Positions 39,481-57,516 of a DNA stretch of 64,000 nucleotides are shown in pieces. Source of the stretch: a virus (lineage: Duplodnaviria; Heunggongvirae; Uroviricota; Caudoviricetes); the IMG/VR virus record IMGVR_UViG_3300042890_002891, positions 32,001 to 96,000 of that record; one strand, 5' to 3'. Position numbers and translations under genes: made by a program. The notes below the pieces were generated by a model. The model was not told the origin of the DNA and made no database searches. It saw only the letters and a program-made list of their open reading frames with translations. The stretch's first letter is position 1. Every line of letters begins with the position of its first letter.

Positions 39481-39803
39481 ATTGCTATTTTTGATTACAA
39501 GGTATAACTACCTCGTTTGGCGTCAAGCGTTAGCTGCTACCAAATATTGTGAGTCATTTGCATTTCTCTTTTTTGTGTCTACGGCCGAGCTTCCCCAACC
39601 CTAACGGCTTCTACATTGCCGGACTGTCCATTTCTGTACTCTTAACCCTGTCGAAACTATGCAGGCCCATTATAAAGAATACTACTGAATTGTGTTGGAT
39701 GTTGCCATCCGCAAAAACCTGTGCAATATTCTTTATGGTGGACCTGGGGGGATTCGCACCCCCGTCCAGAATCCTTTTCTGTCTACTTCATACAGTCTTA
39801 ACT
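39481..39803 (-). ncRNA. ssrA: Circularly permuted (two-piece) tmRNA
   Basis: Acceptor piece with T-arm GGGGG-TGCGAAT-CCCCC and CAGGTCC-A-CCA (3' end 39736), hairpin intervening segment, coding piece starting GGGCCTG (39668) giving G3.U70; tag ORF 39561-39523 ANDSQYLVAANA*; outer ends approximate. Confidence 0.92.
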
Positions 39804-50455: not shown

Positions 50456-51940
50456 TTACCTAAATGTTGGCAAATACTTCTCATCCGTAACTAGTTCAAG
50501 TAATCTTCTTTTGTATTCTGATAGAAACTTATGGGGAGGAGTAGGTTCTTTTTCATAAAAGAGACTACCTGTGTTACTTTGCAGATCATTATATTTTTCA
50601 ATGAGTCGTTGAGCTTGGAAAAAATTCATTTGGTCATTTTCCCATATTACAAAATTATGATGTGGTGCGTTGGGCATTTCGCGGTATCCAAATTTTGCAT
50701 AATCTTTGGTGATACTGCTTTCAAATACTGCGCCGTTTGCTTTTTTACCAATTATTAATGGTCTAAAGGCGAACGAGTCTAATTTTATTTCACGTGTACT
50801 CAACGCCTTCAGAGTGCGCTCAGCTGATTTAATTGTTTCGTAAGGAGTTCCAATTATAAAACTGCCATGCAGATTCATGTCATGGTATGTTTCTTTAATG
50901 GTTGATATCATTGCAATTTGTTTTTCTCTATTATAGCCTTTACCAACAGCTTGTCCACTTTTTCTATCCAACGTTTCTATACCAAAAAACATTGATCTTA
51001 CTCCAATATCGTATAACATATGAATAGTTTCGGGATGAGTGCAAATCAAATCTAATCTTGCATAACACCAGAACTCAGGTTTAAATGGCAACGATACTAT
51101 CATGTCTCTTAACTGCACAAGTTTTTCAACTGAATCGTTGAAAGTGTCATCTACTATCATGTAAATACAAATTCCATGATTGTTATAATTATGCAATAGT
51201 TCTTGTTTCAGTGTGGCAGCATCTTTAATAAAATCTAGTTTGGTCTTACCGTTCATAGGGTACGAACAAAATGCACAGCTGAATATGCATCCTCTGCCAA
51301 TTTCGATAGGTAATCTGGTATGATTCACAACGTCTTCAGCACACCATGTCATGGTATCCTTTGAAAATTCGTATCCTTCTGCAAGCACATTGTTGATGAT
51401 AATCTTGTTGTTGTTGATATTTTTATAGCTATTTTTTAATACAACACCGTGTTTTATGTGATCAACCAAATTTACTATGTTTGCTTCAGCGTATCCCAGC
51501 ACCAGGAAATCAGCATACTTGCATCGTAATTCTGGTCGTACTATCGTACCTCCTGCGACAATTTTTATTGCAGCATTCAACTTGTTGATGTGTGCAAACA
51601 CTTGATCATCAAAATCTGCTCCTTGCGGAAATAAATTAAAATTTTGTCCATGAATATTAGAATTAGATCCAGCCGTCGGCCCAGTTGCAACACTTGTAAT
51701 CAAATCATAGAATGTGGTGCTAAACCCTATCATGCATGTGTCTGACCCTACGGCACGATTTAATAATGTATAAATTTCATCAATAGTAAACTCGGACACA
51801 TGATTCACTACTAAACAAGAATACCCACTGGCACGCAGAGTATTTGCTAACTTGTATGCGCCAATAGCAGGAATAAATACTGAGTCATTAGGATTTCTGC
51901 GAACTATATCAGTAAAAAGAATAACATTAAAATTTGGCAT
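50456..51940 (-). CDS. B12-binding-domain radical SAM protein
   Basis: IEIGRGCIFSCAFC, DDTFN, FFGIETL, SFIIG.P.ET. Confidence 0.85.
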   Translation of the reverse strand: MPNFNVILFTDIVRRNPNDSVFIPAIGAYKLANTLRASGYSCLVVNHVSEFTIDEIYTLLNRAVGSDTCMIGFSTTFYDLITSVATGPTAGSNSNIHGQNFNLFPQGADFDDQVFAHINKLNAAIKIVAGGTIVRPELRCKYADFLVLGYAEANIVNLVDHIKHGVVLKNSYKNINNNKIIINNVLAEGYEFSKDTMTWCAEDVVNHTRLPIEIGRGCIFSCAFCSYPMNGKTKLDFIKDAATLKQELLHNYNNHGICIYMIVDDTFNDSVEKLVQLRDMIVSLPFKPEFWCYARLDLICTHPETIHMLYDIGVRSMFFGIETLDRKSGQAVGKGYNREKQIAMISTIKETYHDMNLHGSFIIGTPYETIKSAERTLKALSTREIKLDSFAFRPLIIGKKANGAVFESSITKDYAKFGYREMPNAPHHNFVIWENDQMNFFQAQRLIEKYNDLQSNTGSLFYEKEPTPPHKFLSEYKRRLLELVTDEKYLPTFR

Positions 51941-52007: not shown

Positions 52008-52081
52008 TGGTGCCCCACGACAGAATCGAACTGCCATCACAGGATTACAAAACCAGTGTACTGCCATTGTACTAGTAGGGC
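52008..52081 (-). tRNA. tRNA-Thr(TGT)
   Basis: Cloverleaf with two U.U mismatches in anticodon stem, CCA. Confidence 0.8.
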
Positions 52082-52136
52082 GAAAAAGAACAGTTCAGGG
52101 ACCTAACTTCTTAAGATGAAGAGTATGAACTATATT

Positions 52137-52215
52137 TGGCTCCGCATCTGGGGTTCGAACCCAGCTAATCATTGATTAACAGTCAAGTCCGTGCACCTAG
52201 CTCGGATTCTGCGGA
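52137..52215 (-). tRNA. tRNA-Asn(GTT)
   Basis: Cloverleaf, G73-CCA. Confidence 0.9.
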
Positions 52216-52224
52216 ATAAATTGT

Positions 52225-52314
52225 TGGCGGAACGAAAGAGACTCGAACTCTTAAAGCGGCTTTCACCACTCGACGGATTAGCAATCCGCTCCAATACCAT
52301 TATGGGACCGTTCC
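52225..52314 (-). tRNA. tRNA-Ser(GCT)
   Basis: Long variable arm, CCA. Confidence 0.93.
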
Positions 52315-52430
52315 AGGAAAATACTTAGCAGCATTGTGCTCTGCTAGAAAAATTTAACGTGGAGCCTTTCACTTGCCACGATTGGTACATCAAAGTACTT
52401 GAAGGTTACACCCAACCTCTAAGAGTGACT

Positions 52431-52519
52431 TGGTGGAAGTGGTAGGATTCGAACCTACAACGTTTCTTATGTGGCGGATTTACAGTCCGTTGCCTTCAAC
52501 CAATTCGGCACACACTTCC
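52431..52519 (-). tRNA. tRNA-Tyr(GTA)
   Basis: Long variable arm, CCA. Confidence 0.93.
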
Positions 52520-52525
52520 TAATAA

Positions 52526-52600
52526 TGGTGGAGGATAGGAGAATCGAACTCCTGACTGAAGCTTGCAAAGCTACTGCGTTCCCAATTACGCCAATCCCCC
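52526..52600 (-). tRNA. tRNA-Ala(TGC)
   Basis: G3.U70, CCA. Confidence 0.93.
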
Positions 52601-52607
52601 GTTATCT

Positions 52608-52684
52608 TGGTCGGTCCTGACGGATTTGAACCGCCAACTTCTAGTTTCGAAGACTAGCACTCTATCCAGTTGAGTTAAGGACCG
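52608..52684 (-). tRNA. tRNA-Arg(TCG)
   Basis: Cloverleaf, CCA. Confidence 0.92.
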
Positions 52685-52689
52685 ATATC

Positions 52690-52764
52690 TGGCGTACCCC
52701 CAAGGACTCGAACCCTGACTTAACGGTGTTGGAGACCGTTGTGCTGCCATTACACTAGAGATAC
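52690..52764 (-). tRNA. tRNA-Trp(CCA)
   Basis: Cloverleaf, CCA. Confidence 0.92.
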
Positions 52765-52989
52765 AAAATTTCTACACACTGTCTGCGGCATCACAGCCCT
52801 GATCAGCTCAATGTGTGTATCGAAGCACTCTTCATGGATGGACCCACGTGTCTCCCGACGGATAGAGAGTGCTTCGATACGCTGTAATTTTTCATCTCAC
52901 AAAAGAGACTCTATCCTACAGGCCGCCCATTTGCCCATGTTTTGAGTGCGGGTCAGGATCTCGTTTCCTATACACACTATCTAACGCTG

Positions 52990-53024
52990 AAAAGAAAAAA
53001 CCCTGGAGTTTTTAGTTCCAGGGT
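52990..53024 (-). terminator. Attenuator terminator 2
   Basis: ACCCTGGA-9 nt-TCCAGGGT-TTTTTCTTTT. Confidence 0.85.
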
Positions 53025-53051
53025 CTTTTGAATTTGCGGATGTTAACTTAG

Positions 53052-53180
53052 TTACTCATCACACCTCTCAAGAGATCCCGGAACGCCTGGAATACTATTC
53101 ATGCGACCATACGCATGTGACCAGGCGGATACCTGGGTAAACATGGGTTTCGTCAACAGTGAACAGAGAGTTGTTTTCAT
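53052..53180 (-). CDS. Putative attenuator leader peptide 2 (MKTTLCSLLTKPMFTQVSAWSHAYGRMNSIPGVPGSLERCDE)
   Basis: Between a consensus promoter and a terminator; 3' codons contain an antiterminator arm. Confidence 0.7.
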   Translation of the reverse strand: MKTTLCSLLTKPMFTQVSAWSHAYGRMNSIPGVPGSLERCDE

Positions 53181-53190
53181 CTTAAATCCT

Positions 53191-53219
53191 ATTATACTTT
53201 ATTTATCATTTGATGTCAA
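53191..53219 (-). promoter_or_regulatory. Consensus sigma70 promoter with embedded TAAATA late box
   Basis: TTGACA-tcaaatgaTAAATAaag-TATAAT. Confidence 0.85.
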
Positions 53220-53266
53220 CCACCAAAGATAACTTCGTGTGAAGTATTTATACTTCACGGCCAAAA

Positions 53267-53340
53267 TGGTTGCGGGTGACAGATTTGAACTGCCGATGCT
53301 CCTGGCTTATGAGACCGGAGTGGTGACCACCCTACCCGCT
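53267..53340 (-). tRNA. tRNA-Met(CAT), initiator-like, reduced D-arm
   Basis: 1:72 mismatch, GCGGG acceptor, A73-CCA. Confidence 0.78.
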
Positions 53341-53362: not shown

Positions 53363-53391
53363 ATTATACAACACATTTGATTTGTTGTCAA
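53363..53391 (-). promoter_or_regulatory. Consensus sigma70 promoter for tRNA-Met
   Basis: TTGACA-17-TATAAT. Confidence 0.8.
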
Positions 53392-53633: not shown

Positions 53634-54341
53634 ATGGAATACAAAACAATTTATCGTGGCAAAGAACTTCCTTTTGCGGATTATTTTGAAAGCAAAAAAG
53701 CCGGTCTGGTAGCAGAATTTCTAGCACAGTATCCTGACTTCTCTAGCACAGAAGTGCTGAACAATTCAGAGATCATGCAAAACAAGATCACTGCCAAAAT
53801 TTCTACCACCCAGGGCAGAGGCACTGCTTGGAAATTGCTACAGGTCAAAGGCAACTACTACGGTGAGCCTCCTTACTATGGTTCACAACCCTTTGAAGAA
53901 TCAAAGTCGAAATTTCCAACCATGATAAGCATCATTGATTATTTTGGATTTGATAATCTTGGCAGCGTGACCTATTCTGTACTGGAAGCCAACGGCATCA
54001 TTGCCAGACACACAGGACCTGAAAATCGTGCAGGTAAATTTATTCGTTGCCACATACCTTTGATTGTACCCGAAGGTGATCTGGGTATGGAGATCAACGG
54101 AGAAGTAGTTGACTGGAGTGAATCCTTTGGATTCAACAATCAAATCATACACAGTGTCTGGAACAACACTGATTATCGTAGACTGGTATTGATGATTGAT
54201 ATAAAACGCTCGTACATTGGGTTGCCTGATGCGCCTCCGTGGACAGAAGAAACAAATGCTGATGCAGTTCCTTTTGAAAAGACTCACAACAAAGTGACAT
54301 ATGGCCCTCAAGAGATTATACCAGCAGTGAACTTGAGATAA
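53634..54341 (+). CDS. Aspartyl/asparaginyl beta-hydroxylase domain protein, copy 1
   Basis: I.RHTG, IRCHIPLIVP, FNN..IHS.WN.TD.RRLVLMID; TATAAATA at 53607-53614. Confidence 0.85.
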   Translation: MEYKTIYRGKELPFADYFESKKAGLVAEFLAQYPDFSSTEVLNNSEIMQNKITAKISTTQGRGTAWKLLQVKGNYYGEPPYYGSQPFEESKSKFPTMISIIDYFGFDNLGSVTYSVLEANGIIARHTGPENRAGKFIRCHIPLIVPEGDLGMEINGEVVDWSESFGFNNQIIHSVWNNTDYRRLVLMIDIKRSYIGLPDAPPWTEETNADAVPFEKTHNKVTYGPQEIIPAVNLR

Positions 54342-54350
54342 CTCTGTAGT

Positions 54351-55028
54351 ATGAAACTCCAAACAATTTATCGTGGCAAAGAACTTCCTTTCGTGGATTT
54401 TTTTGAAAGCAAAAAAGAAGATCTCATAAAAGAATTTCTAGTACAATATCCTGAATTCCACAGTATCGAGCCGTTGCATAATTTAGACCTCTTGCAAAAC
54501 AAGATCACAGGGGCATTGGGCAATAGAACCCACCCTGGATCTCCTTGGGAAATATTGCAAATCAAAGGTACTTATTTTGGCGAACCTCCATATTATGGCT
54601 CACAACCCTTTGAAGAATCAAAGGCAAAATTTCCAACAGCAACAAGTATTATTGATTATTTTGGATTTAGTGTCGTTCGGTCAATTTCGTATTCGGTTCT
54701 GGAACCGCACAGTACCATAGCCAGACACTGGGACCATGAAAATCATGAAGGCAAATTCATACGTGTTCATGTACCCTTGATTGTGCCCCATGGTGATCTG
54801 GGCTTAGAGGTCAATGGGGAAGTGGTTGATTGGAGTGAATCCTTTGGCTTCAACAACCTAAGATTACACAGCGCCTGGAACTTCACGGACCATCGTAGAC
54901 TGATATTATTACTTGATCTAGAACGCTTGCATCTGGGGTTGCCTGATGAGCCATCCTGGTCCGAAACAACCAATGCTGATACCGTACCCTTTCCCAAGAC
55001 ACCTGTTTTTTTATCAAAGCGCAATTGA
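54351..55028 (+). CDS. Aspartyl/asparaginyl beta-hydroxylase domain protein, copy 2
   Basis: Tandem paralogue; RHWD, IRVHVPLIVP, LHSAWN. Confidence 0.85.
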   Translation: MKLQTIYRGKELPFVDFFESKKEDLIKEFLVQYPEFHSIEPLHNLDLLQNKITGALGNRTHPGSPWEILQIKGTYFGEPPYYGSQPFEESKAKFPTATSIIDYFGFSVVRSISYSVLEPHSTIARHWDHENHEGKFIRVHVPLIVPHGDLGLEVNGEVVDWSESFGFNNLRLHSAWNFTDHRRLILLLDLERLHLGLPDEPSWSETTNADTVPFPKTPVFLSKRN

Positions 55029-57317: not shown

Positions 57318-57340
57318 AAAAAAACCCGCTTGCTGCGGGT
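57318..57340 (-). terminator. Attenuator terminator 1
   Basis: ACCCGC-AGCAA-GCGGGT-TTTTTT. Confidence 0.85.
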
Positions 57341-57366
57341 CTTTGAAGGATGCGTTTTTGATCACA

Positions 57367-57456
57367 TCAACAAAGACCCAGGCTCCCGTCACGCTCATAG
57401 GCCATCCCCGAATCAATTGTCGGTATGACTGCTGAGAGGATAGTGAGCCGGTTCAT
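57367..57456 (-). CDS. Putative attenuator leader peptide 1 (MNRLTILSAVIPTIDSGMAYERDGSLGLC)
   Basis: TAGACT-17-TATACT-6-ATG; last codons carry GGGTCTTTG, complementary to the terminator foot. Confidence 0.7.
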   Translation of the reverse strand: MNRLTILSAVIPTIDSGMAYERDGSLGLC

Positions 57457-57516
57457 AAGTGTAGTATATATGCCTTTGCGACAAAAGTCTATTATTTTGG
57501 CAAAATTTGTGGTGGT

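Follow-up and report, generated by a model that had tools for sequence, protein, structure and literature searches.

The locus described here lies on the minus strand of a 64,000-nucleotide stretch of DNA (hereafter, the window) that is part of a 262-kb IMG/VR virus record; the 30 tRNA genes and the permuted tmRNA of the window are likewise all encoded on this strand. In the direction of transcription, the order is a promoter, a 42-codon ORF, an intrinsic terminator, a structured spacer of about 225 nt and a run of tRNA genes. The promoter is of the sigma70 type (53191..53219, minus strand) and, as the initial annotation of this DNA had it, is perfect, with TTGACA at 53219-53214, a 17-nt spacer and TATAAT at 53196-53191 (12/12 match). 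The leader ORF (53052..53180, minus strand) comprises 42 sense codons and a TAA stop codon (53054-53052) and encodes the peptide MKTTLCSLLTKPMFTQVSAWSHAYGRMNSIPGVPGSLERCDE. The composition reported for this ORF in the initial annotation is reproduced by a recount: 36 of the 42 codons are distinct, and all 20 amino acids and all four Thr codons are present. For uniform random codons, the probability of at least 36 distinct codons is 0.009 and that of finding all 20 amino acids is 0.012. The ATG (53180) is located 10 nt past the -10 hexamer, and the sequence AGGA directly abuts this hexamer; given that only 10 nt separate the hexamer from the ATG, the transcript is likely to be nearly leaderless and to lack that Shine-Dalgarno sequence.

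The intrinsic terminator (52989..53024, minus strand) is a strong one, in agreement with the earlier description, and consists of an 8-bp GC-rich stem, ACCCUGGA/UCCAGGGU (53024-53017 paired with 53007-53000), a 9-nt loop and a U6CU4 tract, UUUUUUCUUUU; the core hairpin has a predicted energy of -12.7 kcal/mol. The hairpin scan, with a loop limit of 8 nt that is exceeded by the 9-nt minus-strand loop, lists it on the plus strand only. The 3' codons of the ORF are complementary to the terminator, as already proposed in the initial annotation. The 5' arm of this predicted antiterminator corresponds to codons 33-38 (GUUCCGGGAUCUCUUGAG, 53067..53084, minus strand), and the 3' arm consists of the terminator foot and the whole terminator 5' arm (UUCAAAAGACCCUGGAAC, 53015..53032, minus strand), so that the two folds are mutually exclusive. 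In the window, the duplex (53084-53067 with 53032-53015) contains 16 pairs over 18 nt, with an energy of -19.1 kcal/mol (z = -4.0, p = 0.005 against dinucleotide shuffles of the ORF), and the minimum-energy fold of the leader includes it. Among the 83 terminator-like hairpins in the 262-kb record, the leader terminator ranks fourth for upstream complementarity and one at 57323, the terminator of the second unit described below, ranks first; the ranking uses the z-score, because raw duplex energy scales with arm length.

The spacer between the terminator and tRNA-Trp (52765..52988, minus strand) is conserved and covarying among relatives, and a search against Rfam yields no match for it. No sigma70-like site is detectable between the terminator and tRNA-Trp in the window, so the earlier remark that no obvious new promoter precedes the tRNAs stands. 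The spacer is followed by the tRNA run (52008..52764, minus strand), which was initially read as Trp-Arg-Ala-Tyr-Ser-Asn-Thr. The Trp, Arg, Ala, Tyr, Ser and Thr genes are called by both ARAGORN and Rfam, and the remaining unit (approximately 52215-52137, minus strand), which resembles tRNA-Asn(GTT) with an enlarged D region, is called by neither and is best described as Asn-like. Relatives carry a normal tRNA-Asn at this position.

Upstream of the leader promoter, at 53267-53340 (minus strand), the window contains an unusual tRNA-like gene (only 18.9 bits in Rfam) whose anticodon is CAU and whose D arm is short and odd; the gene has its own perfect TTGACA-17-TATAAT promoter (53363-53391, minus strand) and is followed, just before the leader promoter, by an 8-bp hairpin without a U tract (53239-53258, minus strand). 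This gene is kept with compensatory changes in the related loci L004-L007 and L009, and its transcripts could read into the leader. The tRNA block is flanked by genes for a B12-binding-type radical SAM protein and two paralogous proteins of the Asp/Asn beta-hydroxylase family (50456-51940, minus strand, and 53634-55028, plus strand), the two hydroxylase paralogs being 64% identical to each other. The possibility that the leader peptide is a RiPP precursor was considered and rejected: by tblastn, the ORF-bearing related loci contain neither the radical SAM nor the hydroxylase genes, and the constant neighbor of the leader ORF is the tRNA array.

Searches of public phage genomes at both the DNA and the protein level yield only tRNA-level matches and no relative of the locus. 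Altogether, 49 related loci were collected from viral and metagenome contigs and one metagenome-assembled genome (MAG). An exact search with the terminator identifies six loci; a degenerate IUPAC DNA pattern derived from the middle of the ORF, which is blind to the terminator and the antiterminator arm, identifies 4 further viral and 38 metagenome loci (42), plus one contig of a Haliscomenobacter MAG. Every relative found with this pattern that reaches far enough has the terminator and the antiterminator arm. In all loci with sufficient sequence, the promoter precedes a leader ORF of 36-45 codons in the same frame, and a tRNA array in the same orientation lies beyond the terminator. Thus, by the comparative data, the module is real. 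The module is absent ahead of tRNA-Trp in L002, a more distant relative with a radical SAM gene of 64% identity.

The carriers are a family of large freshwater phages (freshwater jumbo phages). The MAG contig (NZ_JBBAKG010000001.1, 183 kb, binned in Haliscomenobacter) contains a near-identical module at L051:5560-5960 and is probably a phage contig within the bin. The consensus sigma70 promoters and the permuted tmRNAs suggest a proteobacterial host rather than one of the Haliscomenobacter type. The permuted tmRNA is located at 39523-39797 in the window and is also found in L010 and L012, the same loci that also match the Betaproteobacteria tmRNA model. In three relatives, the leader module is preceded, at a distance of 250-550 nt and in the same orientation, by GOLLD RNA, RF02032 (L025:1429-1888, L034:861-1329 and L010:7575-7882, with scores of 213, 207 and 103 bits, respectively); in the window, there is no GOLLD match at the threshold.

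The promoter is conserved along with the ORF, with a score of 10-12 out of 12 and a 17-nt spacer in 23 of 23 clade representatives. In most clades, the distance from the -10 hexamer to the ATG is 6-10 nt, with 6-7 nt prevailing, which implies that the mRNA is leaderless or nearly so; in the clade that includes the window, the 5'UTR would be 2-4 nt. The exception is the clade of L004, L005 and L034, with a 47-48-nt 5'UTR that carries AAGGAAA. The ATG is accordingly fixed either at the transcript start or after a Shine-Dalgarno sequence.

Several lines of evidence bear on the coding status of the leader. The ORF is maintained in the window and in all 49 related loci (50/50), and its length is conserved among homologs, as would be predicted from the initial annotation: 41-45 codons in the same frame in all 48 modules that carry the pattern, the window included, and 36 codons in L003. 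All 40 distinct ORFs are free of stop codons in frame 0, against an average of 0.7-3.2 stops in the other five frames, and indels within the first 32 codons are multiples of three. Among the six sequences found via the terminator, which were identified without use of the ORF and are the only ones used for this estimate, dN/dS in the block W20-G32 is 0.31 in frame, compared with 2.3 and 1.2 in the other two frames, and the N-terminal 18 codons are near neutral (0.76); the values for all 40 sequences were set aside because the search pattern fixed the first and second codon positions and so introduces a bias. This substitution pattern shows purifying selection on the middle of the leader peptide, contrary to the peptide divergence predicted in the initial annotation, and we infer that the leader ORF is translated. 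The conserved segment of the peptide has the form W-S-x-x-F/Y-G/A-x-x-N/K-S-I-P/T-G. Searches of Pfam and PHROG with the leader peptide yield no family match, and a protein database contains only 3 tiny clusters of this peptide, all unnamed. There are no tandem or enriched regulatory codons in the leader, only one invariant Trp codon.

Both competing helices show compensatory changes across the family, as expected under the earlier proposal of two alternative folds, and this covariation keeps them mutually exclusive. In the terminator, which is present in all related loci long enough to show one, RNAalifold identifies three covarying pairs (UA/CG x7, GC/AU x5 and AU/GC x7). When the whole ORF is examined for pairing with the terminator 5' arm, the strongest duplex maps to the homologous place (ORF nt 96-121) in every distinct sequence (n = 40), with energies from -16 to -31 kcal/mol and z from -2.7 to -6. 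In an ungapped, anchor-based pair table, the 7-bp core of the antiterminator is paired in 30-40 of the 40 sequences, with compensatory exchanges at four positions (CG/UA, UA/GC, GC/AU and AU/GC). In all seven sequences with four C in the terminator arm, each of its two alternative partners (the 3' arm of the terminator and the antiterminator arm) has four G. When arms are swapped between sequences, the own arm yields -20.2 kcal/mol, compared with -17.6 kcal/mol for foreign arms, and is better in 32 of the 40 cases. On a plain MAFFT alignment, a structure taken from one aligned sequence, that of the window, has 69% of its cells paired, compared with 26-41% when the partners are slid, and a covariation score of 0.174, compared with 0.025-0.092 for slid partners; none of 500 shuffles reaches the observed value. 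The GG(G/A)UC core of the antiterminator 5' arm is kept in two reading frames: two clades read GGGUC in a shifted frame, encoding R-V and not G-S, and a nearby compensating indel restores both the frame and the position of the stop codon. The retention of the core through a compensated frameshift implies simultaneous selection on the RNA core and the reading frame. Folding of both conformers without the U tract gives the antiterminator as the minimum-energy state in 35 of the 40 distinct sequences; the mean energy difference between the states is only about 2.5 kcal/mol, in line with a switch.

The leader is predicted to contain two further hairpins. P1 is a long imperfect hairpin inside the ORF (53095..53166, minus strand; ORF nt 15-86); its apical part includes the invariant Trp codon (53123-53121). 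It is predicted in all 8 folded clade representatives; helices 1-3 are paired in 71-83% (alignment A2), with two-sided changes at 8 pairs. Upstream of P1, the leader RNA is unpaired over its first 14 nt, and downstream of it comes the antiterminator 5' arm, with which P1 does not pair in the predicted folds. P3 is a small hairpin in the antiterminator loop (53036..53064, minus strand) that includes the stop codon; the corresponding helix of the alignment (helix 7) shows UA/CG and AU/CG exchanges. In the terminator state, the window RNA also forms an AUUCC/GGGAU hairpin, which was examined as a candidate anti-antiterminator and rejected as such since it is not kept across clades. A search for T-box, leader and riboswitch families of Rfam detects none at the gathering score; the best match is Thr_leader with 20.9 bits (threshold 55), and it covers the terminator only.

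Downstream of the terminator, the alignment of 28 distinct spacers reveals two hairpins: a long one, formed by GCGUAUCGAAGCA and UGCUUCGAUAC, in which pairs covary and variable inserts occupy the apex, and a second one on the 3' side. This bears out the initial annotation of a structured RNA ahead of the tRNAs. In the window, the 3' hairpin is ACACAUUG...CAGUGUGU, and a T-arm-like sequence, GGTTCGAATCC, is found within the apical inserts in L004, L017 and L034. A promoter-like site is absent from 26 of the 28 distinct spacers, and each of the other two contains a single weak 9/12 site. A co-directional tRNA array follows the terminator in 42 of the 42 loci with enough downstream DNA, the window included; its first tRNA is usually 183-256 nt away, or more distant where an ORF is inserted. 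In every array that shows three or more tRNAs, one of the first three is tRNA-Trp. A link between Tyr24 of the leader peptide and a proximal tRNA-Tyr was also considered and is broken by L032.

The combination of a consensus promoter, a conserved leader ORF and two mutually exclusive RNA folds ahead of a promoter-less spacer and tRNA array is best compatible with a ribosome-dependent (leader-peptide) transcription attenuator that gates how far transcription from a strong early-type promoter reads through into the main tRNA array and the structured non-coding RNA ahead of it; judging from the sequence comparisons, we assign this reading a probability of roughly 0.6. Under this model, transcription would begin at the AUG or a few nucleotides earlier, with a leaderless mRNA in most clades. 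If the last third of the ORF is free of ribosomes when the polymerase makes the terminator, codons 33-38 would pair with the terminator foot and 5' arm, the terminator hairpin would be blocked, and the polymerase would continue into the spacer RNA and the tRNAs. A ribosome that follows the polymerase to a position between approximately codon 28 and the stop codon would cover or unwind the antiterminator 5' arm and the stop-codon loop; with this arm occupied, the terminator would form and transcription would end at approximately 52999-52989. Slow, stalled or uninitiated translation of the leader would thus raise transcription of the tRNAs and efficient translation would lower it, with the net effect of a feedback between translation status and tRNA supply.

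In this scheme, the position of the ribosome presumably decides the fold, and we infer both the direction of the response (more tRNA with poor leader translation) and the signal that slows the ribosome. Since the leader lacks both a regulatory codon run and a conserved anti-antiterminator, the naked RNA is expected to default to read-through. With the stop codon in the A site, the trailing edge of the ribosome is at approximately ORF nt 112 and covers only the last 3 nt of the antiterminator 5' arm, so that blocking at the stop codon would require steric exclusion or a ribosome in transit. The conserved middle part of the peptide and the long P1 hairpin are not accounted for by a simple coupling sensor.

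A second attenuator-like unit is present at 57318-57492 (minus strand), with a TAGACT-17-TATACT promoter, a leaderless 29-codon ORF encoding MNRLTILSAVIPTIDSGMAYERDGSLGLC, and a terminator with an ACCCGC/GCGGGU stem and U7. It is unrelated to the first unit in sequence and has the same layout; its promoter is weaker, and the -10 hexamer ends 6 nt before the ATG. The last codons of its ORF include GGGUCUUUG, which can pair without mismatch with CAAAGACCC in the foot of the unit's terminator. The unit is kept in seven relatives (L006, L009, L010, L016, L020, L045 and L049), with ORFs of 29-32 codons, a common A-Y-E-x-D...G-L-C motif and the same pairing. As judged by layout and pairing, this shows that the leader-ORF/terminator design recurs. 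A strong promoter, TTGACT-17-TATAAT (approximately 57311-57283), is located directly after the second terminator, which implies that the design can exist where gating of downstream genes seems unnecessary.

This last arrangement keeps alive the alternative under which the unit is a self-contained small gene or a dual-function small RNA, with the ~190-nt RNA or the 42-residue peptide acting in trans, the pairing serving stability or self-coupled termination, and the tRNAs being transcribed by constitutive leak-through. Purifying selection on the peptide and the highly structured RNA are compatible with such a role, and the Sinorhizobium trpL attenuator, for which two reports describe a trans-acting RNA, rnTrpL, and a peptide, peTrpL (PMC6614838, PMC7298713), provides a precedent. 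However, the first unit is always located directly before a promoter-less spacer and tRNA array, and the covariation specifically keeps exclusivity with the terminator, which makes this alternative unlikely; moreover, a function in trans would be compatible with attenuation. Reading the leader as a ligand-, tRNA- or protein-binding RNA switch, with P1 as the sensor and the ORF incidental, appears highly improbable: P1 is indeed a conserved 70-nt hairpin with covariation and the two folds are nearly equal in energy, but the presence of the ORF in 50 of 50 loci, window included, the compensated frameshifts, the third-position pattern of substitutions and the ATG fixed at the 5' end of the transcript all speak for a translated leader, and Rfam contains no matching T-box or riboswitch.

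The remaining alternatives concern what the ribosome would sense. The initial annotation held that the leader samples the whole genetic code, that is, it is built to hold nearly every codon and amino acid, so that a shortage of almost any charged tRNA would stall the ribosome early and switch the array on. Beyond the composition of the window ORF described above, this proposal draws on the relatives, with 29-37 distinct codons and, in all 40 distinct members, 17-20 kinds of amino acids; the mean diversity z is +1.2 against uniform codons, +2.1 against phage codon usage or gene windows, and +0.6 to +1.2 when the conserved part is fixed and the variable N-terminus is randomized. Thus, the window ORF is diverse and the trend across the family is modestly positive, but the effect is modest among sequences that share ancestry, the clade of the window is the extreme one, all 20 amino acids occur in only two related clades, and several clades are at the random expectation (against uniform codons, z is about 0 for L008, L034, L041 and L046). 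Diversity comes naturally to short peptides without repeats, and design for sampling is not established. Furthermore, the leader codons match the proximal tRNAs no better than chance: counted by hand for the middle block against the first seven tRNAs, 8 of 14 amino acids and about 5 of 14 codons match, which is not significant, and the idea of such a match was rejected. Since a pure sampler predicts a freely drifting peptide, the conserved motif is not explained either, and we regard codon sampling as quite unlikely. The conserved block is more suggestive of nascent-peptide regulation, of a peptide that acts in trans, or of joint RNA and protein constraints. In the nascent-peptide version, W20...N-S-I-P-G32 in the exit tunnel would pause or arrest the ribosome near codons 31-33, possibly with the help of a small molecule or factor, and thereby mask the antiterminator 5' arm and set termination. 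A conserved leader peptide is a hallmark of arrest peptides, and here the contrast in dN/dS between the middle block and both the other frames and the N-terminus, the invariance of W, S and I among the first seven peptides, and the end of the conserved block exactly at the start of the 5' arm are in line with such a mechanism. Nevertheless, the peptide shows no similarity to any known arrest peptide or family, the block is partly the 3' strand of P1, so RNA constraints contribute to its conservation, and one clade has K-N-I-T-A or K-S-I-T-G instead of N-S-I-P-G; this version, too, has to be considered quite improbable.

The attenuator reading has clear parallels among known systems. Like the trpL, hisL, leuL, thrL, pheL and ilv leaders of Proteobacteria, the phage leader combines a short ORF, an intrinsic terminator and an antiterminator that shares the terminator 5' arm and overlaps the ORF. 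In contrast to these amino-acid operon leaders, it contains a single Trp codon instead of a run of cognate codons, and because a conserved anti-antiterminator is missing, the untranslated RNA would read through by default; it further differs in its length of about 42 codons, its conserved peptide motif and its mostly leaderless mRNA. It is also phage-encoded, and its targets are tRNAs and a non-coding RNA rather than biosynthetic enzymes. The pheM leader of pheST represents attenuation of a gene of the translation apparatus, and the phage leader likewise would control translation machinery. In the pyrBI attenuator, read-through is set by the closeness of ribosome and polymerase, with a close ribosome blocking the terminator; the phage leader would similarly depend on transcription-translation coupling and not on one class of hungry codons, but here a close ribosome would block the antiterminator instead. 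Neither pheM/pheST nor pyrBI is known to control tRNA genes. The TnaC, SecM, SpeFL and Erm leaders also have a peptide conserved right upstream of a regulatory RNA segment, but they show no sequence similarity to the phage leader and act via Rho or translation initiation, not via an intrinsic terminator and antiterminator. As in Sinorhizobium trpL, a terminated phage leader would release a structured RNA of about 190 nt and a conserved peptide, either of which could act in trans. The tRNA cluster of phage T4 has upstream early-type promoters and is co-transcribed with structured stable RNAs (species 1 and 2), and hence resembles the present locus in that a phage tRNA cluster is transcribed together with a structured RNA; we know of no leader ORF or attenuator described for it.

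Phage tRNA arrays are usually discussed as a means of codon-usage compensation or of escape from host tRNA depletion, and to our knowledge hardly anything has been reported on the control of their expression. A full-text literature search identifies no paper on a leader peptide or attenuator in connection with tRNA genes or arrays of phages. Ribosome-dependent attenuation as such is classical, and the novelty lies in tRNA genes as the target, a leaderless start, the lack of codon runs, a default-on logic and conservation of the peptide. The module would represent a compact natural switch responsive to translation status, of about 230 nt, with a consensus promoter and a leaderless ORF; its 40 natural variants are usable for structure-function work, and the peptide motif may be a new regulatory nascent peptide. 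If the attenuator reading is true, this would be the first case of leader-peptide control of tRNA genes found in the literature search, and it would imply a testable feedback from translation status to tRNA supply during infection. More broadly, and only tentatively, with the odds against it, the module might be a general sensor of translation capacity, in which ribosomes would have to keep pace with the polymerase on the leaderless ORF; a shortfall in initiation, a shortage of many kinds of charged tRNAs or tRNA cleavage by host anticodon nucleases would preserve the antiterminator and switch on the tRNA array and its companion RNA. Such a homeostatic, counter-defense loop would operate through at least two units per genome in a widespread group of freshwater jumbo phages.
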